The position numbers and the translations under genes were made by a program. Positions 27,460 to 53,883 of a stretch of 55,990 nt of DNA are shown here, piece by piece. The notes under the pieces were generated by a model that ran no database searches, had not been told where the DNA came from, and saw only the letters and a list, made by a program, of their open reading frames with translations. Position 1 is the first letter of the stretch; the number at the start of each line of letters is the position of its first letter. The stretch is from a virus. The stretch lies in the IMG/VR virus record IMGVR_UViG_3300045988_068752, positions 1 through 55,990 of that record. One strand, given 5' to 3'.

Positions 27460-27611
27460 GGTCTACCTCCTTTCAGTGTATTTTGACCCCACTTTGGTAT
27501 CCTCGAATCTGAGTTTTAACCCACTCCGGGGATATTTTAGGGTGGTGGGGCGATGCAGGGGGGTGGGGTTTCTCTGCGGACCCTCCCCCTATGGGTCTGC
27601 AGTTACGTCTC
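27460..27611. other. GC-rich, G/C-tract-rich non-coding island (candidate cos/pac or late regulatory/leader region)
   Basis: 152 nt without a credible ORF in an AT-rich genome. G-tracts lie at 27528-27568 and a 10-bp hairpin at 27574-27602. Confidence 0.6.
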
Positions 27612-27920
27612 CTATGTATTTGTTGGTAGACGAATAGGTGTTGGTGTTGTAGGCTTACACACAGTCCAAACATCAGCAACTGGTCCATCATCAATGATGT
27701 AATTAATGGCAGTGGCATGGCGTTGAGCAATCTCAACTTCATCTAACGCATCATCAGTGTTGCCAATGACTTCAGCTAAGAGTTCTGGTGTGTTGTAGCC
27801 ATGTTCAGTGTCCCAACGAGACCAAGCATCATAGTCGTCGAAAGGATTGTAAGGGTTGTCAAACGTTGTTAACATAGTATCAACGACCGACGTCTCTTTA
27901 ACGTAATCTAGTTCATCCAT
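27612..27920 (-). CDS. Hypothetical acidic protein (102 aa)
   Basis: ORF directly downstream of the RNAP gene. Confidence 0.6.
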   Translation of the reverse strand: MDELDYVKETSVVDTMLTTFDNPYNPFDDYDAWSRWDTEHGYNTPELLAEVIGNTDDALDEVEIAQRHATAINYIIDDGPVADVWTVCKPTTPTPIRLPTNT

Positions 27921-27933
27921 AGAGTTCTCCTTT

Positions 27934-30579
27934 CTAGACTAGGTTCTGTACAGTAGACACACTAACGCCTAAAGCTTCTGCTACTTCAGCGTACGTTCTA
28001 CCGTTCTTAAGCATACCTTTAGCTCTGTTAGCTGTAGATAGACTGATAGAGTCTTCCTTCTTAGGAGTAGCTAACTGCTTAAGCCTATCTGAGTCTGAGA
28101 AGCGTATGATGTCAGTAAGCATCTTAGTACTCACAGCACCAGACTGAATAGCTTTCCATTCATCAGGCTCAATAGTAATCCTAGAAGACGCTCCGTCAGC
28201 ACCAGTACGTACACGAGCAGCTGCAATAGCCTGTTGTTTAAGCTTCTTGAGCTGGTCTTTCTGCATGTCAGGGTCACGTTTCTCAGCAATTACCTTGTTT
28301 GCAATGAGCTGTGCTTGACGTTCTCTAGGAGAGTTGGCTAAAGCAAGGTTTAGTTTGTTCTGTAGAGACTCAACTTGAGACTTGTACTGTAGTTTAGCCT
28401 CTTTAGACATGGTCATGTTAGGTGTTGTACTAACAACAGTGTTAGCTTTATCACGCATCTTACCAAGAGCGTTGATATAATCGCCATACATATTTTCGAT
28501 AGGGGTGCCTGAACCAAGTGTCTTAGCATCTTTAACCATTTCTACAACATGGTCTGTAGCAATAGTTCTAGATTTCTTAATCGTTGGTTTAAGTTTAGGA
28601 TTAGCGGCTAGTTCTTCTGGTGTACGATGATGCTCCCAGTATTCCAATGTTCGATGTTCTGTCTTAGACCTTGAAATAAGAGTAGAAGCTCCACCTTCCA
28701 TTTTACCAGTAATAACATTATAGTGTTGTTGATATGCTTTACGTAATTCAGGAATACGATTCTCTCTTTCGGAACGTAAATAATCTAAATTATGTTTTTC
28801 TGCATCAATAACCACCATTGAATGTTTAACGGCTCTAGCAATTTCAGATTGACTAGCACCTTTAAGAGTCATGTCGGTAATAAGGTTTGATACTTCGCCC
28901 ATTTGACGTTGCTTCATGGTCCAATTACCTTTTGAGTCACGAGTCAATAACTGTTTATTATCAGAATAATACTGTTTAGTATCAAAGTTCTTAAGCTCTT
29001 TCAATGAACGACTAGTTGCAATTCCGTTTTTATTATTAGGAATAACCATTACAGTGTCGCCATCAAAATCAGCACCAGATAATTTAGAAGCAACAGATGA
29101 ATCAATACCAACTGCATCTTTAGCGCCCTTCATAAATTTAGCTGGACCTTTTTCAAGTTTATTATTAACTGTTAATTCTGGTAATTCAAAAATACCACCA
29201 TGAGGATATCGAACAAGAACTACTTTCTCTCCATTCTTAAAGTTAGGAGCATATATTTCGTTAGCTTTGATACCAGACAATGGCAAAATAACTTGACCTT
29301 TCATTCTATCGAAGCCAGTTAATTTAAGATTATGACGTTTTGTTGTCAAGCCATCAGCAAAATCTTGCATGAGTGCTTTCTTAATAACTGGGTTTGTCAA
29401 ATTATTAATTTCGTCAAACTCTTTTTGTAATTTTTCATACGTAGTTTGAATACGACCTTTAACAAGAGCAGGTGGTTGTTTAGAAACAAACTGAGAAGAT
29501 AAGGTCTTAGACCAAGTTCCCCAGTCTCCTTCTTCATTAACTTTATTTATAGCGCCTTTTTGTCCATTGGCTTTGATTTGAGCACCAAATGGATTATCAG
29601 GGTCATCTTTTAAAGGTTTAAGAACGTCTTCTTTAGGAGTTCCTTTTTTCTTGTTGGTATTGAAAATAACATCGACACCTTTAGGAAAATCTTTAGGGTC
29701 TCCATAAACAGCCATACCTTTAAGATAATGAGTTCCACCTACACCAATACGAACCTGAGCGTATCTAGAACCACCAAGGTCTAAATCTTTGACCCCTGGA
29801 CGAAGTTCCATAACTCCATCTTTATCGGTACCACCTTGCTCGTCGTATCGAATATTAACGCGTTTCCAATCAATATGTTGGATTGGTTTTAAACCTAATT
29901 TAGTTGAACCGTCTTCGGCTTTATATAGATTAGGAGGAGCGATTTCGTGTTTGTGTTCACGCACAACATCAGGATTAGGTTCTTTTGTAAGAACTTTCAT
30001 TTCTACCCAGTGATTGTCATTGGTAGCATTCTTAACATATACTTTATGCATATGATAACCTTCTGCTTCTAATTGTTGAACAGCACGTTTAAGAGTATTT
30101 TCTTTGATACCTAATTGTTGTGCTGAACCAAGACCTACGTCCAAATATGGATTCTCTTTAATAAGAGCTTTAAGGTCACTCTTAATATTTTCCATTCTTG
30201 TAATGTTGTTCTTAACTTGTTCATTAAGATACATACGAACAGACGACTCAGGAATACCAGTCCTACGAGATATCTCAGTTGGACCATGTCCTTTTTCGTT
30301 TAGTTCAATTACCATAGAATGATTTCTTAGACGAATGGTTTGGTTGGCAATTGTGTTACGAGCACGAAATTCACTTGTCGTGAGTCCTAGTTTTGTAGCG
30401 ATTTGAGTATCGCTTAAACCCGTCTTACGATATTTGGCGACAGTATCGGACCATGATGTAGCCCGTTGATAAGAATTCTCACCAGAACCCCACGCATATC
30501 GTCCACTGTGTGGGATATTCCCTTGGTGAGGAGTACCTTTATGCAGAATAATATCCTCATAAGCTTCTTCTAAATTCAT
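27934..30579 (-). CDS. YonO/RDR-like two-barrel single-chain RNA polymerase with N- and C-terminal HTH modules (881 aa)
   Basis: VVLVRYPHGGIFELPELTV...VASKLSGADFDGDTVMVIPNN (DFDGD encoded at 29056..29070) matches the beta-prime/RDR catalytic double-psi barrel. Upstream, FGAQIKANGQKGAINKV resembles the beta-type barrel. HTH-like segments lie at aa 54-71, aa 97-118 and the last 22 aa. Confidence 0.7.
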   Translation of the reverse strand: MNLEEAYEDIILHKGTPHQGNIPHSGRYAWGSGENSYQRATSWSDTVAKYRKTGLSDTQIATKLGLTTSEFRARNTIANQTIRLRNHSMVIELNEKGHGPTEISRRTGIPESSVRMYLNEQVKNNITRMENIKSDLKALIKENPYLDVGLGSAQQLGIKENTLKRAVQQLEAEGYHMHKVYVKNATNDNHWVEMKVLTKEPNPDVVREHKHEIAPPNLYKAEDGSTKLGLKPIQHIDWKRVNIRYDEQGGTDKDGVMELRPGVKDLDLGGSRYAQVRIGVGGTHYLKGMAVYGDPKDFPKGVDVIFNTNKKKGTPKEDVLKPLKDDPDNPFGAQIKANGQKGAINKVNEEGDWGTWSKTLSSQFVSKQPPALVKGRIQTTYEKLQKEFDEINNLTNPVIKKALMQDFADGLTTKRHNLKLTGFDRMKGQVILPLSGIKANEIYAPNFKNGEKVVLVRYPHGGIFELPELTVNNKLEKGPAKFMKGAKDAVGIDSSVASKLSGADFDGDTVMVIPNNKNGIATSRSLKELKNFDTKQYYSDNKQLLTRDSKGNWTMKQRQMGEVSNLITDMTLKGASQSEIARAVKHSMVVIDAEKHNLDYLRSERENRIPELRKAYQQHYNVITGKMEGGASTLISRSKTEHRTLEYWEHHRTPEELAANPKLKPTIKKSRTIATDHVVEMVKDAKTLGSGTPIENMYGDYINALGKMRDKANTVVSTTPNMTMSKEAKLQYKSQVESLQNKLNLALANSPRERQAQLIANKVIAEKRDPDMQKDQLKKLKQQAIAAARVRTGADGASSRITIEPDEWKAIQSGAVSTKMLTDIIRFSDSDRLKQLATPKKEDSISLSTANRAKGMLKNGRTYAEVAEALGVSVSTVQNLV

Positions 30580-30596: not shown

Positions 30597-31172
30597 CTAT
30601 CTAGGTTTGTTTTCTAAAATCCCAGAAAATTCTTTTATTGTATGATAAACATCATAGACATCTTCTGCTTCTGGAATAAATGTGTCAATGTTCTCGCCTT
30701 GATAAATACGAAGCTCAAAGTCCGTTTTCTCAGGAGCAACACCATATTCCAAACAGAAATATGCAGCGTAAACAAGCAATTGTTCCATTTTAGGTTTGGT
30801 AACGCCAGTCTTTAAATCATGTATCCGAAGAAATCCACGAGGATTATCTTTCTTAGGTGGGTCATAACGAATAGCATCAGCTGTACCAAATGCATATGGA
30901 GAGTAAAATAACAATACTTCGCTATCCATACGATATCCAATTGCGTCGTTAACAAAATTAGCAACTGCAGGATGAGTGTGACCAGGTAATAAACGAATTC
31001 TATGTTGAATTGCTTGACTGGCAAACTCATGAAGCTCAGTTCCACGTTGTTTAGCTTTTTCATTTTCAAAGCGCTCTACTAATTTTTCAGGATTGTATTT
31101 AAGCCAATGACATTGACTAGCACTCAAAAATGAATGTTTACCTTCGAATTCGGGATGTCTGTTCCATTTCAT
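30597..31172 (-). CDS. PD-(D/E)XK family nuclease (Cas4/RecB-like exonuclease)
   Basis: FGTADAIRYD ... LRIHDLKTG gives a D...D-x-K arrangement; replication-module context. Confidence 0.6.
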   Translation of the reverse strand: MKWNRHPEFEGKHSFLSASQCHWLKYNPEKLVERFENEKAKQRGTELHEFASQAIQHRIRLLPGHTHPAVANFVNDAIGYRMDSEVLLFYSPYAFGTADAIRYDPPKKDNPRGFLRIHDLKTGVTKPKMEQLLVYAAYFCLEYGVAPEKTDFELRIYQGENIDTFIPEAEDVYDVYHTIKEFSGILENKPR

Positions 31173-31443
31173 TGAGAACTTCCTCCTTATTCTCTGGATA
31201 TATAGTGCGAGCCCAACCTCCCATAGAATTATACTTGTCTAAGTAATATTCTTGATTAGGTCTGTACGGAGCATTAGCACTACGCTTAACTTCTAAATGA
31301 TAAGAATATGGACCGATGTCCACAGATAAATCTGGAATACCTTGAATGTGGCCAGAATCATTCTTCTTAACAATTGCATCAGGAAATCGTTGATGAATAT
31401 CCTGAATTAAGGCTCGTTGAAAATCTCTTTCAAGTTTGGACAT
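31138..31443 (-). CDS. VRR-NUC domain nuclease
   Basis: ERDFQRALIQDI...GIPDLSV...YHLEVKRS...YRPNQEYYL fits the VRR-NUC pattern. Confidence 0.7.
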   Translation of the reverse strand: MSKLERDFQRALIQDIHQRFPDAIVKKNDSGHIQGIPDLSVDIGPYSYHLEVKRSANAPYRPNQEYYLDKYNSMGGWARTIYPENKEEVLNEMEQTSRIRR

Positions 31444-32588
31444 TCTTTATCAATCCAGTTCCTTTCATTGAATTTCTTTTTACTACGAATTGAGCGTTCG
31501 ATAGCATCATCAATAGAAGCCGGGGATTTAAGATAAACGTAAAATAAATCATTAAAGGAGGTATTGACTCTGTTAATTCGTCCTTCTGATTGCTCCATCA
31601 CGCGATATGAATAATTCAGTGAATAAAACAGAATCGTATCAGTAGTTATGCAGTTCCATCCCTCGGCTCCGGCCGTGTACTGAACCAAATATACCCACTC
31701 AGCAGCATCGGGTATAGGTTCGTGTTTCTGACCGTTCCATTGATAATATGCCCTATTCAAATCTCGACAAATATCTTTCAATATGTCGAGCTCGTAGGTA
31801 TAATTATAAAAGACAATAATTCTTTCACGAGTCATGATTTGTTGTTTAGCATTTTCTATTCTACGTGGGCTTGTGTTAATTATCCTACGAAGAACTTGAG
31901 TAAATTCCGAAGCATTCATTATCGGAGTCTCAGTAAATGGATTAAACCTCGTATCAATAACTTGCTTATACAATTCTTTATCAAAAGCAGTATTAATATA
32001 TTGTCTATGAGTTTTGGTTGTTCGAAAATCAGCCATGGGCACAGCTAAATGACGTCTCAACCGTTCTAGTCTGTCCACCTCATGATATCGTTTAATCTGA
32101 GGGAACTTAGAATATGGATTGTATTCAACGTGTCTATCTACAAATTCAGTTTTGTTTCTGTAGAAATTGTTTGCTAAGAATATACACATCCAATCCATCC
32201 AAACATCTCCGGGTGTTGCTGTTAACATAATCCATTTGTTCTTACGAGCAATCTTAATGAAAGATGTACCCCATGAACCATATCCAATAGCTCGTTGCTC
32301 ATCAAATAAAAAGAAAGCATCTTTAACATCTAGATACTTTGTAATATTATTCCACGAGTCAACTGTCCCTTCAATGCCGAGCATTTCTAGGTCATGATGC
32401 CACTCTTTGTCATTACGCTTCTTAGCAACTGTAATAATATAAAGTGGTAAATCGCTATGGTTTTCCATATAATAAAATAGGCCGGTCAAGGATTTACCCG
32501 AACCGACCTTCCCGCACAATACAGAACCATTATGCAATCTATCAACCGCCCGCCGTTGATAGTCGTATAATTCAATTTTAGAAGCCAT
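31407..32588 (-). CDS. SF2 (DEAD/SNF2-like) helicase
   Basis: Walker A CGKVGSGKS, DExx-like LFDEQR, motif III-like LTATPG, and a C-terminal helicase lobe. Confidence 0.8.
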   Translation of the reverse strand: MASKIELYDYQRRAVDRLHNGSVLCGKVGSGKSLTGLFYYMENHSDLPLYIITVAKKRNDKEWHHDLEMLGIEGTVDSWNNITKYLDVKDAFFLFDEQRAIGYGSWGTSFIKIARKNKWIMLTATPGDVWMDWMCIFLANNFYRNKTEFVDRHVEYNPYSKFPQIKRYHEVDRLERLRRHLAVPMADFRTTKTHRQYINTAFDKELYKQVIDTRFNPFTETPIMNASEFTQVLRRIINTSPRRIENAKQQIMTRERIIVFYNYTYELDILKDICRDLNRAYYQWNGQKHEPIPDAAEWVYLVQYTAGAEGWNCITTDTILFYSLNYSYRVMEQSEGRINRVNTSFNDLFYVYLKSPASIDDAIERSIRSKKKFNERNWIDKECPNLKEIFNEP

Positions 32589-33117
32589 ACTTACGACGGA
32601 GTGGATTATCCACTACACGAATATAAGCATTCTTCAAGTTAAGACGAGCATACTGTCCATCTGGACTTGGGTCTCGTCGAGCGATAGTCATATCGCACAA
32701 TGCAATTTCCATATCGTCCAACATAGCTAACTGACTTTTGTCGTTCAAATACATACGGTCAGTTGGTACAATATCTTCATCGATAGGAGTTTCACCATTA
32801 TCATAAATAATAGCAATGCTTGGCAAACCGAATTGTGTATATACACGAACCTTGAAGAAATAAGACGGTCCAAACATGTCTGGATTCTCAGCCATCTTCT
32901 CCTCCATCTCATCAGTGATATTTTTAGGCTCATACAATTTAACGTTGACACCATATTGTTGTAGAAGTTCTACATCTTCTGGGTCTACCTTAACGTTAAA
33001 ATAACGGTCACCTGCGCGATTGTATTTTTCTTGACGCCCACTGAAGTTTCGAGCGAATAAGAATTCAACTTCTTCCAAAATAATTTGGGAGTTTGAAATT
33101 TGTGAAATTTTAGTCAT
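32578..33117 (-). CDS. Possible single-stranded DNA-binding protein
   Basis: 179-aa ORF between the polymerase and helicase genes. The context is typical for phage SSB-like proteins, but there is no diagnostic motif. Confidence 0.35.
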   Translation of the reverse strand: MTKISQISNSQIILEEVEFLFARNFSGRQEKYNRAGDRYFNVKVDPEDVELLQQYGVNVKLYEPKNITDEMEEKMAENPDMFGPSYFFKVRVYTQFGLPSIAIIYDNGETPIDEDIVPTDRMYLNDKSQLAMLDDMEIALCDMTIARRDPSPDGQYARLNLKNAYIRVVDNPLRRKYGF

Positions 33118-33206: not shown

Positions 33207-33236
33207 TCTATTATGTGCCATGTAAATCCTGCGAAT
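33207..33236 (-). promoter_or_regulatory. Conserved promoter-like motif, copy a
   Basis: Minus strand: CGCAG GATTTACATGGCA CATAAT AGA. Confidence 0.55.
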
Positions 33237-47574: not shown

Positions 47575-47604
47575 TTTCATTATGACCTATGTAATTTCTG
47601 CGGA
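47575..47604 (-). promoter_or_regulatory. Conserved promoter-like motif, copy b
   Basis: Minus strand: CGCAG AAATTACATAGGT CATAAT GAAA. Confidence 0.6.
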
Positions 47605-47607
47605 TTT

Positions 47608-47886
47608 TTATAATCCAGCAAGACATTCCTCACGGCCGGCCATATATTTAACCGGAGGAAGTCCTTTACGTTCGCGGACGATATTAATTTCATTATAGAT
47701 TAGCTCCAATCTATATTTGCAAAACTTCTTGATAGCCATAGCATCTGTACGAATACTATGGTCGTAGTGGCGAGGATAACTGTCTTCACCGAAATCAAAA
47801 TAACCCAGCTCACATTTGTAATAGAATACGGATATACACAAACTAATAACATAACTCTTCGGTGTATATGACATTTTACTCATCAT
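47608..47886 (-). CDS. Hypothetical protein (92 aa)
   Basis: ORF track. Confidence 0.5.
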   Translation of the reverse strand: MMSKMSYTPKSYVISLCISVFYYKCELGYFDFGEDSYPRHYDHSIRTDAMAIKKFCKYRLELIYNEINIVRERKGLPPVKYMAGREECLAGL

Positions 47887-48025
47887 CTTCCTCCACTTTC
47901 ACAAAATGAATTACCATATTTGAATTAGGTACATCAATTTCAATACCTTTATTGCTTGCATTAAAGGTATCGTAAAGATGGTTCATTTGTTCATAGTCCA
48001 TCTCTAAGCGAATATGTTGTTTCAT
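47876..48025 (-). CDS. Hypothetical protein (49 aa)
   Basis: ATG at 48025 overlaps the upstream TGA (ATGA) and follows AGGAGAGGA. Confidence 0.45.
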   Translation of the reverse strand: MKQHIRLEMDYEQMNHLYDTFNASNKGIEIDVPNSNMVIHFVKVEEDDE

Positions 48026-48516
48026 GTTAAATAATCCTCTCCTAAATAATAACGCAACCATGTTACGGTGTCCCACTCGTTTGTATCAACACGGTTATAT
48101 ATTGTGTCAATCACATCAAGAAAATATCTAATGTGTTCTTTGTCGACGGCATATTCTTTTGGATGGGCAAATGGTTCGAACCATAAGTTCTCTCCCATTA
48201 TACTTTCCATCTCATCGTAGTAAAATCCTTCAGCCAATGAAGCGATTAACTCATCTACCATATTTCGAGATATATTCCACAAACAAAGCTCACTATCTAA
48301 TTTCTCAGTGTTATCCGATACCATCAGTAACCCAAATATATATCTCCGATAGTCCTCTTCGAATTTTAGTTTAGTCCAATTTCGAATTAGCCTACCGATA
48401 TACCAATCGTCTATGAAAAATAATTCTTGTAACGGTAACTTACGTATATTTTGTACAACCGTATCATAGAATTCTTCCTTAGACAATACCAGGGTATATT
48501 CTTCGGTAGAAACCAT
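48022..48516 (-). CDS. Hypothetical protein, paralog of 48521..49021
   Basis: Shares patterns with its neighbour: LPLQELFFIDDWYIGRLIRNWT / EEDYRRYIFGLLMV versus MPLDDFLLIPNNEIDKYIAAWT / QEDYKRYFQFIMTI. Confidence 0.6.
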   Translation of the reverse strand: MVSTEEYTLVLSKEEFYDTVVQNIRKLPLQELFFIDDWYIGRLIRNWTKLKFEEDYRRYIFGLLMVSDNTEKLDSELCLWNISRNMVDELIASLAEGFYYDEMESIMGENLWFEPFAHPKEYAVDKEHIRYFLDVIDTIYNRVDTNEWDTVTWLRYYLGEDYLT

Positions 48517-48520
48517 CACT

Positions 48521-49021
48521 TCAACCTTCTTCCTCATGATTTTCTTCTAATACTTTGTCATAGTATTTTTCGAATTCCTTACGCAGTTCAGTAGCGCTCA
48601 TATATGCTCTGCGATTGTCCGGGTCATTTTCAATTTTGTTTGCCGTTTCGGATATCAATTCGTATAACAATTGATAGTTTTCATGCATTACATCCGCGGT
48701 TCCGAATACAGTTTTGTAATATGAAGTTTCTAACATAGATAACAACATAGAGTCAATAATCTTACGGGCAATACGGAAATAGTATAAATCCATATCTACG
48801 ATATGCATTTCAGGCGGAATTGTCATGATGAATTGGAAATATCGTTTGTAGTCTTCTTGTGCAGGACTGTTACCCTTTTCATCTGGGTCCGTCCACGCAG
48901 CGATATATTTGTCAATTTCGTTGTTTGGAATTAACAAAAAGTCATCAAGCGGCATCGCTTTAATCATATCAATAATTGTCTGCTTGAATTCAGCAGACGT
49001 TTTAACAATTGGTCTAGCCAT
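48521..49021 (-). CDS. Hypothetical protein, paralog of 48022..48516
   Basis: See the paired motifs in the previous entry. Confidence 0.6.
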   Translation of the reverse strand: MARPIVKTSAEFKQTIIDMIKAMPLDDFLLIPNNEIDKYIAAWTDPDEKGNSPAQEDYKRYFQFIMTIPPEMHIVDMDLYYFRIARKIIDSMLLSMLETSYYKTVFGTADVMHENYQLLYELISETANKIENDPDNRRAYMSATELRKEFEKYYDKVLEENHEEEG

Positions 49022-49033
49022 TTTTACCTCACT

Positions 49034-49264
49034 TTATAAATACAAATTCTCAATGATGGATACCATCATAAATAGGTATATAAACCCAATAAATAACATT
49101 CCAGTAAATGCTATTAGGAAACCTAAGAACCCCAACGTGCTCATAAGATTTAACATCAATAAGAAACCAATTGTCTCTACACATAAAACTAGAAACGTCA
49201 ATGCGAACATGAATAACACATCTGTTAAGTTGTTTTCTAATACATATTTAATTTTCTCCCACAT
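49034..49264 (-). CDS. Small multi-TM membrane protein (76 aa), holin-like topology
   Basis: VLFMFALTFLVLCVETIGFLLMLNLMSTLGFLGFLIAFTGMLFIGFIYLFMMV. Confidence 0.55.
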   Translation of the reverse strand: MWEKIKYVLENNLTDVLFMFALTFLVLCVETIGFLLMLNLMSTLGFLGFLIAFTGMLFIGFIYLFMMVSIIENLYL

Positions 49265-49625
49265 TTATTCCATTTCCTTTCAAATAATAATTTCTGATAA
49301 TTTGTTTAGGAGTCAGCTCACCATTAAATACACCATACACATAAATTTCATATGTCCATCTGTCAGTACGAATATTGTATTGTAAAGGTGTTACCGATGT
49401 AATAATACCCGCTTTAAATATAGACAATTCGTCATGCAAAATCTCAGGTTCAATTTTTTGCACACCATCGGACATTCGAGTATATCTTTCGTATCCTTGC
49501 ATACCAATTTCTTGAAGATTTGTAGATACTTCAATTTTAAAACGGTTGTCATCAAGCCGCGTAACATACTTCTTAATAATTGGATTTTTTGGTTTTGTCT
49601 CCTTCGTCATAACAATATCTGTCAT
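49248..49625 (-). CDS. Hypothetical protein (125 aa)
   Basis: ORF with a GAGGAGG RBS directly after a terminator. Confidence 0.6.
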   Translation of the reverse strand: MTDIVMTKETKPKNPIIKKYVTRLDDNRFKIEVSTNLQEIGMQGYERYTRMSDGVQKIEPEILHDELSIFKAGIITSVTPLQYNIRTDRWTYEIYVYGVFNGELTPKQIIRNYYLKGNGINVGEN

Positions 49626-49640
49626 GTTTACCTCCTCACA

Positions 49641-49666
49641 AAAAGAAAGGGATAAGTAATCCCTTT
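49641..49666 (-). terminator. Intrinsic terminator ending the 49665..49955 cassette
   Basis: AAAGGGAT/ATCCCTTT 8-bp stem (49646-49653 with 49659-49666) followed by CTTTTTG on the minus strand. Confidence 0.6.
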
Positions 49667-49955
49667 ATTTGAAAAATCGTTTGCTGACTACTCCCCAGAG
49701 CTTGGATGTAATAATGTTCATTCTTTCGAAATATAACACGCCAGCCATTCCAGTTACATCGATAATAGCTCTTAAAATTGTTTCCGGCTTCAACTTGTTT
49801 TTGTCACGTTCGTTCCGTACTGCAACGAGTTTTGCCAATTTCAAATTAAGATCCATAATCTCAGCTTCTGTTTCAGCTAGAGCTATTTTCGTTTGAAGTT
49901 CCTCTATTTGCATGTTAAGCCCATCAAAGCATATAGCCATCATAATTTCTCTCAT
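49665..49955 (-). CDS. Hypothetical protein (96 aa); monocistronic cassette
   Basis: Motif copy j upstream and a terminator downstream. Confidence 0.65.
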   Translation of the reverse strand: MREIMMAICFDGLNMQIEELQTKIALAETEAEIMDLNLKLAKLVAVRNERDKNKLKPETILRAIIDVTGMAGVLYFERMNIITSKLWGVVSKRFFK

Positions 49956-49970
49956 ATATTTTTACCTTCC

Positions 49971-50000
49971 TTTCATTATAGCATAGGGAAATCCTGCGCA
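49971..50000 (-). promoter_or_regulatory. Conserved promoter-like motif, copy j (overlaps the last codons of 49976..50335)
   Basis: Minus strand: CGCAG GATTTCCCTATGC TATAAT GAAA. Confidence 0.6.
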
Positions 50001-50335
50001 CCATTTGGTACGAATTTTACCGGTGATAATTCGGGCGGCAATATGGCTGGTTTAAGAGTTACTCTAACATCCGCGTCACCTTTCCATACGGGAGGAACCA
50101 AATATATGGTTGTGAGTATCCAAGTTTTGCCGAGAAAATTCACTAGTAGAAGAGAATTATCATTAGAATTGTTTAATAAATAATCCTTACGAAGCAAACG
50201 CATGATTTCGTTATTAACAAAATGAATATTAACCACGCTTTGTTTAAGTATAGCATCGAATTCTTCCGTAACATTCTCATGAACCATTGTCGAATATACT
50301 TTGTTTTGGTATTTAATTATAAGTCTTCCAATCAT
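49976..50335 (-). CDS. Hypothetical protein (119 aa)
   Basis: ORF track. Confidence 0.55.
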   Translation of the reverse strand: MIGRLIIKYQNKVYSTMVHENVTEEFDAILKQSVVNIHFVNNEIMRLLRKDYLLNNSNDNSLLLVNFLGKTWILTTIYLVPPVWKGDADVRVTLKPAILPPELSPVKFVPNGAQDFPML

Positions 50336-50337
50336 AT

Positions 50338-50655
50338 TTATACCGCCCTCACTAAATGCAACACAATATACTGTGAACCAAATTCTGGCTTATGAAAATT
50401 CATACTCTTTAATGAATAATCATCATGAACTTTACCACCGATAATAAATGTAGGCTTACACTTTGGTGGTATTGTCAACTTTGCAAATCGACACGCATCC
50501 CTAATATGTTGATAATAAGGTATAATAACACCTATTTTCTTCTCAACATACTCACCTGTATCCCAATAGCGAGATGATTCGTCCCATATAGTAACATCTT
50601 GAAATGAATACACCTTACCATCTATCTCAAATATAAATCGATTAATTGGTTCCAT
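50338..50655 (-). CDS. Hypothetical protein (105 aa)
   Basis: ORF track. Confidence 0.55.
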   Translation of the reverse strand: MEPINRFIFEIDGKVYSFQDVTIWDESSRYWDTGEYVEKKIGVIIPYYQHIRDACRFAKLTIPPKCKPTFIIGGKVHDDYSLKSMNFHKPEFGSQYIVLHLVRAV

Positions 50656-50945
50656 TAGTCATCTCCAAAAATCTTACGCAATTCGTCATTTTGGTCCTTA
50701 AGAAACATAGATTCGCCTAGTTTACCTTCTTCCCCAATCGCTTCATTAAGTTCGCGATTATATTTGGTATTTCGTCGACCAAGAATAAGATAGGCAACTG
50801 CGGTAAGGATGCCTGTAGCAGCCATACCAACAGCACCTTTAATTTGTTCATTCGCACGACCATCGACTTGTCCACGGTAATACGCTTCTTGCATGTCTTT
50901 GTCTTCAAATTCTACACCTTCAATTTTAAACATATTTTTAAACAT
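50655..50945 (-). CDS. Hypothetical membrane protein (96 aa)
   Basis: TM segment AVGMAATGILTAVAYLILG. Confidence 0.55.
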   Translation of the reverse strand: MFKNMFKIEGVEFEDKDMQEAYYRGQVDGRANEQIKGAVGMAATGILTAVAYLILGRRNTKYNRELNEAIGEEGKLGESMFLKDQNDELRKIFGDD

Positions 50946-50959
50946 ATTAGTTTCTCCTT

Positions 50960-51286
50960 TTATTCATCCAAAGTTTTATCTAATGCTCGTAGTATAATGA
51001 CTAACTCAGAAATATATGACAGGGGTATATGCTTTTTGGGAGTGTATGCGCATTCCACACATTTCAAATAAAGTTCAGTCATACCTTTTTTCAAAACTGC
51101 CAATTGTAATTCGGAATCAATATCCTTAATTTCATAAGCACGTTTTTCGACTCGGTCAACTTTATCGATATCATCAACCAATGTATTGATACTTTCTTTA
51201 CAATCTTTTCTAAGCTTTTTGTTAAAAAATAACCATGTAATTAGTGAACTACGGTCTTTCAAACTGTCGTTGTTTAATATATACAT
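50960..51286 (-). CDS. Hypothetical protein (108 aa)
   Basis: ATG at 51286 follows GGGGGAG. Confidence 0.55.
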   Translation of the reverse strand: MYILNNDSLKDRSSLITWLFFNKKLRKDCKESINTLVDDIDKVDRVEKRAYEIKDIDSELQLAVLKKGMTELYLKCVECAYTPKKHIPLSYISELVIILRALDKTLDE

Positions 51287-51297
51287 TATTACTCCCC

Positions 51298-51435
51298 CTA
51301 TGTAATATCCCAAACCTTTTTAATCAAGTATAAAATTACTCCAACTTTCGTTAAGCTGGAAATTGTAACATTCCGATTTTGCTTTTTCTCAGTAGCAGTT
51401 CTTGCTATAATTTGTTGCAATACTTCTTTATCCAT
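51298..51435 (-). CDS. Small protein (45 aa)
   Basis: GAGGAGG RBS directly after a terminator; encodes MDKEVLQQIIARTATEKKQNRNVTISSLTKVGVILYLIKKVWDIT. Confidence 0.5.
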   Translation of the reverse strand: MDKEVLQQIIARTATEKKQNRNVTISSLTKVGVILYLIKKVWDIT

Positions 51436-51449
51436 TTGTACCTCCTCAC

Positions 51450-51477
51450 AAAAAAAGAAAGGATATTTTCATATCCT
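51450..51477 (-). terminator. Intrinsic terminator ending the 51483..51665 cassette
   Basis: AGGATAT/ATATCCT stem (51460-51466 with 51471-51477) and a 4-nt loop, followed by TTCTTTTTTT on the minus strand. Confidence 0.65.
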
Positions 51478-51482
51478 AATCT

Positions 51483-51665
51483 TTAGAAATTTTCATTTCT
51501 AAGTTTCTTTAATACGCTTTGAACTGTATTCAAGCGACGTTTATGAAATTCGCTATCTTCGTTAATGTAACCCTGTTTTTCGAGTTTCTTTACATAATCC
51601 TCTTCCAACACGGCGTATAACGCCAACAAGCGAAATCCTAATTCTCGCACACATTTTCTGAACAT
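51483..51665 (-). CDS. Small protein (60 aa); monocistronic cassette
   Basis: Motif copy c upstream, AAGGAGGA RBS, terminator downstream. Confidence 0.65.
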   Translation of the reverse strand: MFRKCVRELGFRLLALYAVLEEDYVKKLEKQGYINEDSEFHKRRLNTVQSVLKKLRNENF

Positions 51666-51687
51666 ATTAAGTCCTCCTTAAATTTTA

Positions 51688-51716
51688 TTTCATTATAGGA
51701 TGTGTAAAAACTGCGT
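51688..51716 (-). promoter_or_regulatory. Conserved promoter-like motif, copy c
   Basis: Minus strand: CGCAG TTTTTACACATCC TATAAT GAAA. Confidence 0.6.
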
Positions 51717-51862
51717 TACAATAATTTTTTAAAAGCAGCTTCCATTTTCTCATATTTAAGTTGGATAATCGCAGGGTTCTGCATAATGTTAAGCATATCA
51801 CTAGCGTTTTCGTGTAACAAATCAGGTCTAGTTATAAAAATAATTGGTTCGGGTCTATTCAT
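51716..51862 (-). CDS. Small protein (48 aa)
   Basis: ATG at 51862 (MNRPEPIIFITRPDLL...) follows AAAGGAGG. Confidence 0.5.
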   Translation of the reverse strand: MNRPEPIIFITRPDLLHENASDMLNIMQNPAIIQLKYEKMEAAFKKLL

Positions 51863-51941
51863 TATCTTTACCTCCTTTGAATAATGTCCGAATGATGTCA
51901 ATTACCATAAACAATGATAAAATCCACATAAATAAAGTCAT
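51855..51941 (-). CDS. Possible small hydrophobic peptide (28 aa)
   Basis: AAAGGAGG RBS; encodes MTLFMWILSLFMVIDIIRTLFKGGKDNE. Its stop overlaps the next start. Confidence 0.4.
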   Translation of the reverse strand: MTLFMWILSLFMVIDIIRTLFKGGKDNE

Positions 51942-52053
51942 GTATATTACCTCCTTTACTTGACTTCACAAAACCCTCCATATGTAAATTTGACTGAATA
52001 AAGTTGAGGCTTCCTCCTTAAAAATAATTATTTATGGAGAGCTTGGTGAAATC

Positions 52054-52080
52054 AAAAAAGAAAGGAGCCTTTAAGCTCCT
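52054..52080 (-). terminator. Intrinsic terminator ending the 52085..52273 cassette
   Basis: AGGAGC/GCTCCT stem (52063-52068 with 52075-52080) followed by TTTCTTTTTT on the minus strand. Confidence 0.6.
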
Positions 52081-52084
52081 ATTC

Positions 52085-52273
52085 TTATTCTTCCTTATTA
52101 GTATTGCGTACCAACAATGATAACGCCACAACAGCAGTTCCTACGGTCAGTAAACCTTCAATAGTACCTTGACCTGCTCCTTTAAGGCAACTAACAATAA
52201 ATTTGTCGTTTTCCTTAATTTCAAGCGGTGTGTCTACAAAGTTAACAAGACCTAAAAATCCTTTGTTTGTCAT
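52085..52273 (-). CDS. Small protein with C-terminal TM segment (62 aa); monocistronic cassette
   Basis: ATG at 52273 follows GGAGGA; encodes MTNKGFLGLVNFVDTPLEIKEND...GLLTVGTAVVALSLLV. Confidence 0.65.
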   Translation of the reverse strand: MTNKGFLGLVNFVDTPLEIKENDKFIVSCLKGAGQGTIEGLLTVGTAVVALSLLVRNTNKEE

Positions 52274-52296
52274 TATGTTGTCCTCCAATATTTTTA

Positions 52297-52325
52297 TTTC
52301 ATTATAGGGTATGTAATTACTGCGA
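52297..52325 (-). promoter_or_regulatory. Conserved promoter-like motif, copy d
   Basis: Minus strand: CGCAG TAATTACATACCC TATAAT GAAA. Confidence 0.6.
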
Positions 52326-52763
52326 TTAAGTTAACTTCCTATAGTCACCAATAAGTTTATCAGGAAAATATTCCCCATCGTTATTGATATCCAATATAGG
52401 CGCTTTCTCTCCTTCATCTAACATATCAGCAACTGTGTGTGAATATGCCTTGATTGTTGCGAAGAACATAGGTGCGTCCTTCTTGGAAATATAAACCGTC
52501 TGTGCAGTATGTGCTCGCTTAGGTTTAGGGTTGTGAATACGGATACCTTCAAAATAACTTTTATCTGGATCGATAAATCCAGACATAATTACTGGTACGT
52601 CGTTAGCTACCAAATTCACATACACGATATACTCTCCAATCTTCTCATCGAAATATGAGTGAATGTATTTAAAAAGAAGAGAATGTACATTTGGCATTCT
52701 CTTAGTAACTCCGAATTTCCTTCCTGTCTTTTTAACAGTTTTCCTTTTCTTGCTAATAGGCAT
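52326..52763 (-). CDS. Hypothetical protein (145 aa) with basic N-terminus
   Basis: ATG at 52763 follows AAGGAGG; encodes MPISKKRKTVKKTGRKFGVTKR... Confidence 0.6.
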   Translation of the reverse strand: MPISKKRKTVKKTGRKFGVTKRMPNVHSLLFKYIHSYFDEKIGEYIVYVNLVANDVPVIMSGFIDPDKSYFEGIRIHNPKPKRAHTAQTVYISKKDAPMFFATIKAYSHTVADMLDEGEKAPILDINNDGEYFPDKLIGDYRKLT

Positions 52764-52799
52764 AGCAAACCTCCTTAAATGATTTTGAAAAAAAAAAAA

Positions 52800-52890
52800 C
52801 GAAGGAGTGAATATGCGGCATCGCACCGCACTTCCATTTCTGGATGCTTTCCTAAAACCTACTAAGCATATTCTTATGGCTTATTCCTTC
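52800..52890 (-). ncRNA. Candidate ~90-nt structured small RNA (third promoter-RNA-oligoT cassette)
   Basis: It begins at the end of motif copy e. A GAAGGA/TCCTTC closing stem (52885-52890 with 52801-52806) is followed by G+T12. An internal TGCGG-TGCGATG-CCGCA hairpin has 5 bp and a 7-nt loop. No ORF and no RBS. Confidence 0.35.
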
Positions 52891-52916
52891 ATTATAATGT
52901 ATGTAAATCCTGCGAA
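52887..52916 (-). promoter_or_regulatory. Conserved promoter-like motif, copy e
   Basis: Minus strand: CGCAG GATTTACATACAT TATAAT GAAG. Confidence 0.6.
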
Positions 52917-52925
52917 ATTCAAAAA

Positions 52926-53040
52926 AAAAGGGTGCCGGATTCGAACCGACGACAGCCATCCGTATTCACGTTATCCAATGTGGGGAATACGGGCGCTCTA
53001 ATATGGATAAATATCCACACACCACTGAGCTAAGCCCTTT
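52926..53040 (-). ncRNA. 114-nt tRNA-like RNA with expanded D-loop and anticodon arm
   Basis: Minus strand: AAAGGGC TTA GCTC AGTGGT[GTGTGGATATTTATCCATAT]TA GAGC G CCGTATTC[17-nt loop]GAATACGG ATGGCTGTC GTCGG TTCGAAT CCGGC ACCCTTT + T-run. The D-arm, T-arm and acceptor pairing are canonical. About 40 nt are extra. Confidence 0.5.
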
Positions 53041-53067
53041 TCATTATAGCGTATGTAATTTCTGCGA
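53038..53067 (-). promoter_or_regulatory. Conserved promoter-like motif, copy f
   Basis: Minus strand: CGCAG AAATTACATACGC TATAAT GAAA. The terminal AAA are the first three nt of the tRNA-like acceptor stem. Confidence 0.6.
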
Positions 53068-53071
53068 AAAA

Positions 53072-53145
53072 AAAGAATAGAGTGGAGTTGAACCACGTCG
53101 CCCCTCCTGAATAATCAGGATGCTCTCCCGCTGAGCTATATTCTT
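53072..53145 (-). tRNA. tRNA gene (about 73 nt) with non-canonical anticodon loop; identity unassigned
   Basis: Minus strand: AAGAATA TA GCTC AGCGGGA GAGC A TCCTG ATTATT CAGGA GGGGCGAC GTGG TTCAACT CCAC TC TATTCTT + T8. The 7-bp acceptor stem is perfect and the D-arm and T-loop are canonical, but the anticodon loop has only 6 nt. Confidence 0.6.
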
Positions 53146-53172
53146 CATTATATGGTATGTAAATCCTGCGGA
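53143..53172 (-). promoter_or_regulatory. Conserved promoter-like motif, copy g
   Basis: Minus strand: CGCAG GATTTACATACCA TATAAT GAAG. The terminal AAG are tRNA positions 1-3. Confidence 0.6.
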
Positions 53173-53174
53173 TT

Positions 53175-53199
53175 AAAAAAGAGAGGGAATTAACCCTCT
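53175..53199 (-). terminator. Intrinsic terminator ending the 53207..53623 cassette
   Basis: AGAGGG/CCCTCT stem (53182-53187 with 53194-53199) followed by CTTTTTT on the minus strand. Confidence 0.65.
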
Positions 53200-53206
53200 G
53201 ATGATT

Positions 53207-53623
53207 TTATAAAGATTTATAAAACTTAACAATATCTTTAAATTCACCTTTACGTTCGTTTACGATTGGTGTAATCTTATTTATATGTTGTGTGAAATAA
53301 TCTTTAACTTCTTCATCGTTTTTAATTCCCTCTACAATATCCTTATTTACTTGCGATAGTCGTTCATGTGTTTCAAACATTTTTTGTGTTCTATCATATA
53401 TTTCATCTTTAGAAATAGATTCAATAACAGCTTCTGCTTCTCTACGAAGACGTTTGTAAAGCGATTTGGTGTATTCAATAATATGTAAGTTAGCTTTTGA
53501 AATGCCAACCACCATTTTATATTGATCATCCAACATCTTTCCAAGTTCGACATCGTTTAGCATATACGCTAATTCAATCATATTTGTTTGATTTAGTGAT
53601 AGTTCGTTAGTTTGTTTAGTCAT
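53207..53623 (-). CDS. Hypothetical protein (138 aa); monocistronic cassette
   Basis: Motif copy h upstream, AGGAGGG RBS, terminator downstream. Confidence 0.7.
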   Translation of the reverse strand: MTKQTNELSLNQTNMIELAYMLNDVELGKMLDDQYKMVVGISKANLHIIEYTKSLYKRLRREAEAVIESISKDEIYDRTQKMFETHERLSQVNKDIVEGIKNDEEVKDYFTQHINKITPIVNERKGEFKDIVKFYKSL

Positions 53624-53651
53624 GACAATGACCCTCCTATAATAAATTTTA

Positions 53652-53681
53652 TTTCATTATAGGGTTTGGAATTCCTGCGAA
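53652..53681 (-). promoter_or_regulatory. Conserved promoter-like motif, copy h
   Basis: Minus strand: CGCAG GAATTCCAAACCC TATAAT GAAA. Confidence 0.6.
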
Positions 53682-53707
53682 AAAAGAGGAGTATATGTAA
53701 ATACTCC
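53680..53707 (-). terminator. Intrinsic terminator ending the 53735..53869 cassette
   Basis: GGAGTAT/ATACTCC stem (53688-53694 with 53701-53707) followed by TCTTTTTT, which runs straight into the CGCAG of motif copy h. Confidence 0.6.
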
Positions 53708-53734
53708 GTTATATCATGTAGTTGTGAATAGATG

Positions 53735-53869: not shown

Positions 53870-53883
53870 ATGTTTGTCCTCCT

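Follow-up and report, generated by a model that had tools for sequence, protein, structure and literature searches.

The polymerase gene and its neighbourhood

The window analysed here, a 55,990-nucleotide stretch of viral DNA (positions 1 to 55,990 of IMG/VR record IMGVR_UViG_3300045988_068752), carries on its minus strand an 881-residue ORF (27934..30579) that PHROG 4291 and Foldseek identify as a two-barrel RNA polymerase with helix-turn-helix (HTH) modules at both ends. The ORF, singled out in an earlier note made from the sequence alone, is real by the ORF list, and all features described below lie on the same strand. The profile phrog_4291 ("RNA-dependent RNA polymerase") covers residues 4-879 with E=3e-303, and the protein belongs to the PHROG 4291 or 'phage 1706' family. 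Full-length homologues occur in 250 phage records, and the family comprises 1,159 clusters at 50% identity (E<=1e-30), nearly all of them full length. The window polymerase is ~39% identical to orf75 of phage 1706 over the full length and 41-44% identical to actinophage members; the closest record is the polymerase of Caudovirus D_HF5_2C (83% identity), the window being an oral-metagenome member. The Pfam RdRP family (PF05183) matches residues 493-616 with 22.3 bits (E=6e-5), below its gathering cutoff of 23.8 bits, and a precomputed match is carried by a few close relatives (P0068, P0098). Many GenBank homologues are labelled 'RNA-dependent RNA polymerase', while most actinophage records read 'HTH DNA-binding domain protein'. 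In 2010 Ruprich-Robert & Thuriaux included the family among the YonO-like proteins, as their "phage 1706" branch (PMC2919709), and Koert et al. 2021 described a "putative RNA polymerase", noting its DxDGD motif, HTH domains at both ends and an HHpred probability of 95.7% for the RdRP match (bioRxiv 10.1101/842583). The novelty implied by the earlier note was therefore overstated. No biochemical report on any member of the family was found in the literature.

Upstream in the same operon (30597..33117) PHROG assigns genes for an SSAP (32578..33117), a helicase (31407..32588), a VRR-Nuc-type endonuclease (31138..31443) and a Cas4-like exonuclease (30597..31172), an order kept in 1706, Circum, Avazak, DrGrey, ReqiPepy6, Count, Yotsuba and RavenPuff. 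The polymerase gene is followed by a small ORF of 102 residues (27612..27920, phrog_4303), a candidate partner that is present here and in nine of nine relatives examined, after the polymerase gene in every one. The synteny of endonuclease, exonuclease, polymerase, PHROG 4303 ORF and right genome end extends to 10 genomes. Because a conserved cos region lies at 27542..27589 (GGGGGAGGG-TCCGCAGAGAAA-CCCCACCCCCC-TGCATCGCC, then CCCTAAAATATCCCCGG), no other large gene separates the polymerase gene from the right end. Alignment pairs this region with the genome ends given in the records of 1706, Circum, DrGrey, Avazak and ReqiPepy6, and the ReqiPepy6 record also annotates a 3' cos overhang. Between the polymerase gene and the late module no terminator was found. 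The earlier claim that the genome holds no sigma factor and no other beta or beta-prime gene stands for the 30 ORFs scanned with PHROGs.

Barrels, active site and helix-turn-helix modules

The two-barrel fold first proposed from sequence signatures is borne out by PHROG 4291, by predicted structures and by Foldseek searches against the PDB. The six best PDB matches of the full-length AlphaFold model (pLDDT 75.9) are to QDE-1 and RDR2 (E 1e-7 to 1e-4). A core-only model (pLDDT 81.5) has 26 PDB matches at E<=1e-3, every one of them a two-barrel RNA polymerase: QDE-1 first, followed by Thermus-phage single-subunit RNAPs, RDR2 and AR9 beta'. The core model matches QDE-1 with E=2.7e-11 and TM 0.50-0.54, at 12-15% sequence identity to QDE-1 and RDR2, and the barrels are its most confidently modelled portion. 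Barrel 1 (residues 241-349, 29533..29859) is a beta-subunit-like double-psi β-barrel with six strands in both models and a core-model pLDDT >90; barrel 2 (residues 428-514, 29038..29298) is the beta-prime-like catalytic one, also six-stranded in the models and matched by QDE-1, RDR2 and AR9 beta'. As modelled, the two face each other as in QDE-1.

Barrel 2 bears the Mg-binding DFDGD and R-x-P, and barrel 1 an invariant aspartate and a basic hairpin. DFDGD (residues 504-508, 29056..29070) is encoded where the earlier note placed it, within an invariant SGADFDGD, and falls inside the barrel fold, as the loop between helix 494-499 and strand 509-514, the final strand of the second barrel. The R-x-P upstream of it is R457-Y-P459 (29203..29211) in VRYPHGG, 45 residues before DFDGD. 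None of R457, P459, D504, D506 and D508 varies among 79 homologues at ~45% identity, a constancy far beyond chance, and D254, R277 and K287 in barrel 1 are likewise invariant. The lysine-bearing signature of the beta-like barrel had been mis-assigned to FGAQIKANGQKGAINKV (residues 331-347), in which the lysines vary and only N345 is invariant: where the window protein has GQKGAINKV, relatives read VTSAMNIV, GQRGKLNIV or KNGAINIL, and in the model the segment is a low-confidence loop plus the final strand of barrel 1. Judged by the alignments, the true beta-like basic signature is instead the invariant hairpin YAQVRIGVGGTHYLKGMA (residues 273-290, 29710..29763; strands 273-280 and 284-292), which contains R277 and K287, with the invariant D254 upstream. 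Beta-like barrels hold an invariant aspartate and two basic residues (D709, R738 and K743 in QDE-1; D837, K979 and K987 in Rpb2), and D254, R277 and K287 are candidate counterparts of the QDE-1 residues (PMC2919709). Past the catalytic loop lies a highly conserved helical region (residues 554-617, 28729..28920; MGxVSNLITDMT...ARAV.HSMVVIDAEKH), within the Pfam RdRP match and with many invariant columns.

Pfam, PHROG and helix pairs in the model place all three previously proposed HTH segments where they had been expected. Module 1 (residues 54-71, 30367..30420; helices 57-64 and 68-95) is matched by phrog_3855 'HTH DNA binding protein' over residues 41-72 (E=3e-10). Module 2 (residues 97-118, 30226..30291; helices 100-107 and 111-118) is matched by Pfam HTH_IclR over residues 96-119 (33.6 bits); its recognition helix ESSVR (residues 111-115) is invariant, and G97, E111, S112 and R115 are invariant columns. 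The C-terminal three-helix HTH (residues 847-881, 27937..28041; helices 847-858, 863-870 and 874-880) is sigma-70 region 4-like, with Pfam matches over residues 856-880 to HTH_23 (47.3 bits) and Sigma70_r4_2 (37.4 bits, cutoff 25.7). The HTH-like modules in the model exceed these three: a probable winged-helix-like module (residues 150-198, 29986..30132; helices 152-156 and 160-172, strands 176-183 and 191-198) has a weak Pfam HTH_36 match over residues 153-175, and a conserved three-helix unit occupies residues 805-837. In the predicted structure at least four modules of the helix-turn-helix type flank the polymerase core. The extreme N-terminus carries a conserved signature that is predicted to be disordered (residues 11-33, 30481..30549; L-H-K-G...S-G-R-Y-A-W-G-S-G; pLDDT <50), with H13, G15, S25-Y28 and G31-G33 invariant. 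It may be a relative of the DUF7211 head-module tag, a match seen at the polymerase N-terminus of three of ten relatives, all below threshold, and not in the window protein.

A promoter-like motif and its possible reader

The earlier note had further suggested that the polymerase might recognise promoters of its own and that the genome contains a matching class. A candidate class is present: the pattern CGCAG-N13-TATAAT has 13 matches in the window against 1.9 expected, and the motif has 10 copies, all on the gene strand, nine exact and one with one mismatch. A weight matrix finds 10 sites on the gene strand and none on the opposite strand or in shuffles. One copy, CGCAGGATTTACATGGCACATAAT (33210..33233; exact pattern match, weight-matrix score 27.2), precedes the operon in which the polymerase gene comes last. 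The other nine, candidate cognate promoters, fall in an early-region block (47579..53911), at 47579-47602, 49975-49998, 51692-51715, 52301-52324, 52891-52914, 53043-53066, 53147-53170, 53656-53679 and 53888-53911. The same architecture, identical and gap-free, is found in Lactococcus 1706, Arthrobacter Circum, Streptomyces DrGrey and Gordonia Avazak, all polymerase carriers; over five genomes the weight matrix gives 52 sites on the gene strand, none on the opposite strand and none in shuffles, with none in an SPbeta control. The motif is AT-rich, and unchanged in the 60% GC Streptomyces phage. A copy before the polymerase operon occurs in 8 genomes (the window, D_HF5_2C, Circum, Avazak, DrGrey, ReqiPepy6, Count and RavenPuff), and is weak in most relatives. 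The own-promoter idea gains support from this identical spacing in distant phages that share the polymerase.

The geometry of the motif is not sigma-70-like. TTACA and TATAAT are spaced by 5 nt, a -35-like hexamer at the 16-18 nt expected between -35 and -10 elements accompanies one of the ten window copies (at 18 nt), and a TG extension none; sigma-70-type promoters are not enriched in the window (51 vs 44±6). Two tRNA-like units, which an Rfam scan did not recognise, start 1-2 nt past TATAAT, and terminators of the classical hairpin-plus-U type close the early units (19 vs 5.6±2.5 expected). Before the late genes of five genomes we found no conserved promoter-like element other than the CGCA...TATAAT class.

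Our best explanation, to which we would give a probability of roughly 55%, is a sigma-independent phage transcriptase that reads the CGCAG-N13-TATAAT-type promoter and is possibly delivered by the virion. The polymerase would be the phage's own DNA-dependent transcriptase, with no need of a sigma factor, and its HTH modules would read a 24-30 bp phage-specific promoter, tCGCA-N3-4-TTACA-N5-TATAAT-GA, nine copies of which would serve short early transcription units and one the operon ending in the polymerase gene itself. Transcription would probably start immediately past TATAAT. We infer the activity, template and promoter specificity of the enzyme, and three points run counter to this explanation: the motif holds a perfect TATAAT, the primary-sigma -10 consensus in both phyla; hairpin-plus-U terminators fit host RNA polymerase at least as well; and the reader of the motif could be another conserved phage protein, such as the PHROG 4303 protein.

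Delivery of the polymerase in the virion is suggested by its relatives. In P0315 a single ORF at the portal position of the head module joins a portal domain to the polymerase core, and in P0343 the polymerase gene comes next after the portal gene. The portal-fused versions are without the terminal HTH modules, each comes from a single metagenomic contig, and no promoter-like motif was seen on these short contigs. In the ReqiPepy6 record the polymerase homologue carries the note 'structural protein'; of the phage 1706 proteins six are marked as structural in their record, and orf75 is not among them. The polymerase would be a late product, expressed together with the late genes that come after it beyond the joined cos site with no terminator in between, and would then be packaged in the capsid and injected, so that early genes could be read without host polymerase. 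We put forward this course of late synthesis, packaging and injection tentatively, at somewhat under even odds. The full picture, a very large siphophage group of two phyla that runs transcription largely free of host RNAP by means of a capsid-carried, HTH-guided, motif-reading polymerase starting directly past TATAAT, is more doubtful still; in it the 24-30 bp promoter would have changed hardly at all since the phages diverged. The hosts of that group would be Lactococcus, oral Firmicutes, Arthrobacter, Gordonia, Streptomyces, Rhodococcus and others, and the polymerase would be carried free, beside the portal or fused to it.

The foremost alternative, which we consider rather unlikely as a whole, is a YonO-like late-gene transcriptase. 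Host RNAP would read the ten TATAAT units as -10 promoters, the upstream block of the motif would be an operator for a phage regulator (possibly the polymerase's own HTH modules), and the enzyme, made from the last operon, would transcribe the structural and lysis genes, an operon of ~27 kb, across the joined cos. The late genes of SPbeta are indeed one YonO-transcribed operon that starts downstream of yonO (PMC5467207), and here too the late module comes straight after the polymerase gene, both on one strand and with no terminator between them. The perfect primary-sigma -10 element, the enrichment of intrinsic terminators in the early region and the absence of the polymerase from the 1706 structural-protein list likewise fit this alternative. 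Against it, no distinct conserved promoter-like element was found before the late genes in the five genomes; host reading of the motif is hard to reconcile with the nine of ten window copies that have no suitably spaced -35-like hexamer and with the missing TG extensions. In addition, a 24-30 bp block common to phages of Firmicutes and Actinobacteria needs a conserved reader, the polymerase is the sole conserved protein with recognisable DNA-binding domains, and the motif also stands upstream of the polymerase operon.

That the enzyme is a true RNA-dependent RNA polymerase, copying phage or host transcripts into antisense or double-stranded RNA or amplifying small RNA, is improbable. Its top structural matches are QDE-1 and plant RDR2 and its nearest sequence family is Pfam RdRP, but the database label derives solely from the Pfam name, and double-stranded DNA is the substrate indicated by the four or more HTH modules, by the conserved motif with its cognate look and by the portal fusion. 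The two-barrel relatives in crAss-like and Thermus phages are likewise DNA-dependent, which counts against an RNA template. RNA-mediated regulation was raised as a possibility in PMC2919709; YonO, however, is a DNA-dependent enzyme (PMC5467207), and QDE-1 also uses DNA templates (PMC9508822).

A slightly slimmer chance still falls to an accessory role in replication or recombination, with the enzyme supplying RNA that primes synthesis or activates an origin. Such a role would account for the synteny with replication and recombination genes (the DNA polymerase-SSAP-helicase-nuclease module), but the phage DNA polymerase (1,292 residues) already has a primase-like domain (phrog_864/1829, residues 120-412), and ten dispersed promoter-like sites before genes are unlike what an origin function predicts. 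A mere DNA-binding regulator with a decayed polymerase core, in keeping with the 'HTH DNA-binding domain protein' label of most actinophage records and with Pfam thresholds being passed by the HTH domains only, is scarcely credible, since all eight active-site positions and long barrel stretches are invariant across phyla and the barrels are the best-modelled part of the protein, the pattern expected from purifying selection on catalysis.

For asking how minimal two-barrel RNA polymerases locate their promoters, the PHROG 4291 family is unusually tractable because its putative DNA readers are fused to the core and a sharp candidate promoter recurs across two phyla. Many cultured hosts and phages are at hand, in the SEA-PHAGES collections and as Lactococcus phage 1706. 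If the polymerase does read the motif, it would provide sigma-free promoter specificity within the fold common to cellular RNA polymerases, hundreds of labels ('RNA-dependent RNA polymerase', 'HTH DNA-binding protein', 'tail fiber', 'transcription factor D5') would be corrected, and a compact orthogonal polymerase-promoter pair for Gram-positive hosts might be gained. Were the full, capsid-carried scheme also true, no earlier minimal two-barrel polymerase would match this one in having a defined apparatus for promoter recognition fused to it; if host polymerase reads the motif instead, it is merely another member of an already predicted family.

Comparison with known systems

The TTTACA of the motif resembles the -35 hexamer TTGACA of sigma-70 promoters, and the match of the C-terminal HTH to Sigma70_r4_2 is generic, but the 5-nt spacing of TTACA and TATAAT is incompatible with a sigma-70 holoenzyme. 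The T7/SP6 promoter consensus is a contiguous ~24-bp element with TATA at its end, followed at once by a conserved, G/A-rich start region. The window motif has a similar layout, a functional analogy only, as the fold of T7 RNAP is unrelated.

QDE-1 and RDR2 have the same barrel order as the window polymerase, beta-like and then beta-prime-like, and apparently the same set of eight active-site positions, given the equivalence proposed for barrel 1 (PMC2919709); unlike it, they are eukaryotic silencing enzymes without HTH modules. The Thermus-phage proteins P74 gp62, P32 gp64 and P23-45 gp96 are phage-encoded minimal two-barrel polymerases of different sequence families and the second-best structural matches of the core model (Foldseek E about 2-4e-8 and 6e-4). 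According to the paper that describes them, in which HTH modules go unmentioned, P23-45 gp96 is fused to the tape measure, so that a siphovirus can deliver such an enzyme in a virion protein (bioRxiv 10.1101/2022.12.01.518664); where PHROG 4291 relatives are fused, the partner is the portal instead. The virion polymerase gp66 of crAss-like phi14:2 is a two-barrel, QDE-1-like enzyme, as stated in bioRxiv 10.1101/2020.03.07.982082. The crAss-like and N4 virion polymerases are made late, packaged and injected and use phage-specific early promoters, a course that is proposed for the window polymerase. They belong to podoviruses and are much larger than the window polymerase, and Foldseek returned no match to them.

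Like the window polymerase, YonO of SPbeta is a phage-encoded single chain (~100 kDa) whose gene precedes the late module; it is the DNA-dependent RNAP of the SPbeta late genes, and its promoter recognition was left explicitly unresolved (Forrest et al. 2017, PMC5467207). The earlier note's choice of YonO as the characterised analogue holds for R-x-P...DxDGD, found at similar spacing, and fails for overall sequence similarity (hhalign probability 2.7% with the 79-sequence profile); on reading its sequence, YonO also lacks the recognisable HTH modules of the window polymerase. By analogy the window polymerase resembles YonO in function, yet it lies outside YonO's own family. From the 'phage 1706' family, PHROG 4291, nothing essential sets it apart, the neighbourhood, DxDGD and terminal HTHs being the same. 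In earlier papers on the family and in the wider literature we found no mention of the motif, of the barrel-1 signature as corrected here or of fusions to the portal, and what is added here is a motif conserved across phages of two phyla, a copy of it before the polymerase operon, and a portal fusion lineage.

Fold and candidate active site of the polymerase

The polymerase ORF (27934..30579, minus strand) encodes 881 residues, as the earlier note had read it, with DFDGD at residues 504-508 (nt 29056..29070) and VRYPHGG 45 residues upstream. The PHROGs family phrog_4291, 'RNA-dependent RNA polymerase', covers the protein end to end (E=3e-303), and a Pfam RdRP match scores 22.3 bits, just under the 23.8-bit cutoff. 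Translated searches recover full-length homologues in 250 phage records, among them one that is 83% identical in a phage from human saliva, with 39-44% identity among the matches listed for Arthrobacter, Gordonia, Streptomyces, Lactococcus 1706-like, Faecalibacterium, Rhodococcus, Microbacterium and Curtobacterium phages. An exhaustive profile search extends the family to 1,159 clusters at 50% identity (E<=1e-30); the best 150 of these are nearly all full length, so helix-turn-helix (HTH)-barrel-barrel-HTH is the usual architecture. In one homologue, P0251 (1,062 residues), this architecture is preceded by a 2'-5' RNA ligase / 2H-phosphoesterase-type domain (PF13563, 27.7 bits, at cutoff), and a second, P0257 (1,068 residues), shares its N-terminal offset.

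PDB sequence searches, using either the single sequence or a 13-sequence profile, returned only HTH proteins and a marginal match to AR9 β' (E=1.6). Comparing the family profile by hhalign with YonO, the two-barrel RNA polymerase of Bacillus prophage SPbeta, a check that the earlier note had proposed, gave no match. Since sequence methods miss both the solved polymerases and YonO, sequence by itself leaves the fold unsettled, and we therefore used structure. The full-length AlphaFold model (pLDDT 75.9) was built on a 79-sequence alignment, for which distant homologues were gathered by profile search, and its best six PDB matches are the cellular RNA-dependent RNA polymerases QDE-1 and RDR2 (E 1e-7 to 1e-4). 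A core-only model (residues 225-640, pLDDT 81.5) gives 26 PDB matches at E<=1e-3, every one a two-barrel RNA polymerase: QDE-1 (E=2.7e-11, TM 0.50-0.54), the single-subunit enzymes encoded by Thermus phages P74 and P32, RDR2, AR9 β' and the tape-measure-fused polymerase of P23-45. Two barrels of six strands each are modelled at residues 241-349 and 428-514, with DFDGD in the loop preceding the final strand of the second. The predicted structure supports the two-barrel polymerase fold.

The β-like motif originally proposed for the first barrel, GQKGAINKV, was rejected because it is not conserved: when the protein is aligned with nine phage homologues from six host genera and two more from the protein collection, conservation fails at the FGAQIKANGQKGAINKV lysines, whereas YAQVRIGVGGTHYLKGMA (residues 273-290) is invariant. 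The latter is also far closer to the β-subunit motif, GDK-x5-HGxKG. A 2010 review defines eight residues as invariant in all two-barrel enzymes (D709, R738, K743, R962, P964, D1007, D1009 and D1011 of QDE-1; PMC2919709), and their candidate counterparts D254, R277, K287, R457, P459, D504, D506 and D508 are all invariant in the 79 sequences; D254, R277 and K287 are candidates assigned by their place in the modelled barrel 1, not by superposition.

The three HTH segments described alongside the barrels are real. Pfam places HTH_IclR at residues 96-119 and both HTH_23 and Sigma70_r4_2 at 856-880, all above cutoff; PHROG 3855, 'HTH DNA binding protein', matches residues 41-72; and the AlphaFold model has helix pairs matching all three, together with a winged-helix-like unit (150-198) and a three-helix unit (805-837).

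A promoter-like element and its putative reader

The element CGCAG-N13-YATAAT, also pointed out from the sequence, stands up to counting, with 13 matches in the window (at most one mismatch) against 1.9 expected. Nine exact copies and one with a single mismatch lie on the gene strand; nine of these ten fall within the early region (47.6-53.9 kb) and the tenth between the DNA polymerase and SSAP genes, where the polymerase operon begins. In distant relatives, searches for repeats brought up the same element, gap-free: Arthrobacter phage Circum (CGCGTAAATTACAnGGGCTATAATGA), Lactococcus phage 1706 (CGCATGTTTTACATAnACTATAGTAGAA), Streptomyces phage DrGrey (TCGCATATTTTACACGCCCTATAGTGAGACCCC) and Gordonia phage Avazak (TCGCAGAATTTACACGTCCTATAATGAGACCCC). 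The motif has lineage-specific variants, TATAGT in 1706 and DrGrey and CGCGT in Circum. Scoring with a weight matrix derived from all five genomes yields 52 gene-strand sites, whereas the other strand, Markov shuffles and 49 kb of SPbeta yield none. In D_HF5_2C, Circum, Avazak, DrGrey, ReqiPepy6, Count and RavenPuff, the endonuclease-exonuclease-polymerase operon has a weaker copy immediately 5' of it.

SP6/T7-class promoters have the cores ACACTATAGAAGA / CACTATAGGGAGA, to which the 1706 copies (L013:24030-42931), ...ACACTATAGTAGAAAG, are close. As the polymerase fold is unrelated to theirs, this likeness may reflect convergent use of a TATA melting element immediately ahead of the start site.

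Between 45000 and 55990 the window holds 19 hairpin-plus-U terminators (5.6±2.5 expected), predominantly on the strand of the genes and each one immediately 5' of the next motif copy, so that the early region is a chain of short promoter-terminator units. DrGrey is arranged likewise and has a conserved hairpin, GACCCCGCAAGGGGTTTGGGTTTCG. Two tRNA-like units, 53068-53146 and 52916-53042 (minus strand, promoter to U-run), fold as cloverleaves whose acceptor stem begins 1-2 nt past TATAAT and ends at the U-run; one carries an 'anticodon' loop of 4 nt, the other large insertions besides a canonical GGUUCGAAUCC T-loop. These starts would fit initiation directly after TATAAT and are suggestive of the start site, no further, because Rfam recognises no tRNA in either unit. 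ARAGORN labels the first 'tRNA-???', which we dropped as proof of the start site given the blank Rfam result and the modest z-scores of the folds. Sequences resembling tRNAs follow motif copies in 1706 and Avazak too.

The motif is an AT-rich block of 24-30 bp, unchanged in phages of 34-60% GC with hosts from two phyla, and a conserved reader is therefore needed. The polymerase, with its invariant HTH recognition helices, is the sole conserved protein with recognisable DNA-binding domains. The best-supported mechanism, to which we give a probability of roughly 0.55, is that the enzyme would act as a sigma-independent, DNA-dependent transcriptase whose fused HTH modules recognise the conserved CGCA-TTACA-TATAAT promoter. 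In the main rival explanation, which we consider less likely, the protein would be a YonO-like late-gene polymerase and the host enzyme would read the motif: TATAAT is the -10 element that primary sigma factors use universally, and the early units close with hairpin-U terminators of the classical kind, at the excess of 19 over 5.6±2.5. The geometry of the motif is unlike that of sigma-70 promoters, however: TTACA and TATAAT are 5 nt apart, only one of the ten window copies offers a -35-like hexamer at a distance of 16-18 nt, and canonical promoters are not enriched in the window (51 vs 44±6).

Possible delivery in the virion

If the transcriptase reads early promoters it must be there at infection, and we tentatively extend the mechanism to an enzyme that would be carried in the virion. 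Three observations, from two contigs and one GenBank record, favour this indirectly. Two metagenomic contigs of ~70% GC place a polymerase core lacking the terminal HTHs upstream of the S78 prohead protease. In one, a single 1,789-residue ORF (P0315, L016:1866-7235) joins a portal domain (PF04860, E=3e-29) to the polymerase core and occupies the portal position of the head module, ahead of the S78 protease and capsid gene; in the other (P0343, L017:229-5658) the gene for the polymerase comes right after that for the portal, and the fragment upstream matches the portal C-terminus (E=6e-10). The weight matrix finds no promoter sites on either contig, which is uninformative because both span head genes only. 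The polymerase homologue of ReqiPepy6 is called a 'structural protein' in a GenBank note; against delivery, orf75 of 1706 is not among the proteins marked structural in its record.

A DUF7211 tag, D[VI]IEH[FHY]G[IV]KGM[KR]WG, opens eight window ORFs, among them those of a paralogous family (starts at 16463, 17866, 25650, 54400, 54958 and 55561, minus strand, plus an ORF across the assembly join with its tag at ~84-151). It also opens head-module proteins in every relative, the carriers lying for the most part beside the terminase and portal genes or between them. One carrier, orf7 of 1706, is annotated 'structural protein'; the tag may serve in virion targeting or as a protease site. The N-terminus of the polymerase is invariant and disordered (L-x-H-Y-G...S-G-R-Y-P-W-G-S-G) and its resemblance to this tag offers a weak lead to delivery. 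We kept it as a lead only, since Pfam scores DUF7211 in the polymerase N-termini of three of ten relatives, below threshold, and gives the window protein no score.

Genome layout and comparison with known systems

The window ends are identical (1-55 = 55936-55990), and the window is a circular assembly of a single phage genome, complete and circularly permuted, that is 55,935 bp long and has all genes on the minus strand. The order SSAP, helicase, VRR-Nuc endonuclease, Cas4-like exonuclease, polymerase, PHROG 4303 ORF, genome end is kept in ten genomes. The PHROG 4303 ORF (27612-27920, minus strand) comes next after the polymerase gene in each of the ten genomes examined and encodes a small acidic protein (MLTT.DNPYNPF...W..WD), a candidate polymerase partner. 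Past it, a 150-bp gap rich in G/C runs can be aligned with the termini annotated in relatives. Cos is thereby placed near 27542/27543, and no other large gene lies between the polymerase gene and the right end. The cos region (27542-27589, minus strand) reads GGGGGAGGG-TC(T)CGCA(A/G)A...CCCCCC..TGCATCGCC, then left end CCC(C/T)AAAA.ATCCCCGG, and is conserved across phyla; its TCGCA(A/G)A is similar to the upstream half of the promoter motif. Searching near the genome ends for a distinct late promoter yielded only this conserved block. Elsewhere on the minus strand, the endolysin gene (37737-38741) lies just upstream of a fused primase-DNA polymerase gene (33265-37143, 1,292 residues, phrog_4210) and apart from the holin-like gene (26715-27092).

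The family is not new: it is known but uncharacterised, the window protein joins it as a new member, and we found no biochemical study of it in the literature. The 1706 protein was placed among five YonO-like two-barrel families (Ruprich-Robert and Thuriaux 2010, PMC2919709), and an RdRP HHpred match, DxDGD and HTHs at both ends were reported in the same phage supercluster (Koert et al. 2021, bioRxiv 10.1101/842583). GenBank labels disagree, ranging over 'RNA-dependent RNA polymerase', 'HTH DNA-binding protein', 'transcription factor D5', 'tail fiber protein' and 'excise'. Literature searches on the promoter sequence and on the N-terminal tag returned no relevant paper; the searchable literature appears not to contain the promoter's conservation across phyla, the fusions to the portal or the barrel-1 signature as corrected here, and together these make the question directly testable. 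Joined into a circle, the genome has the polymerase gene immediately upstream of a lysis, packaging and structural module that shares its strand, and no terminator separates the two, a layout like that of YonO, whose own gene lies upstream of the late operon it transcribes (PMC5467207).
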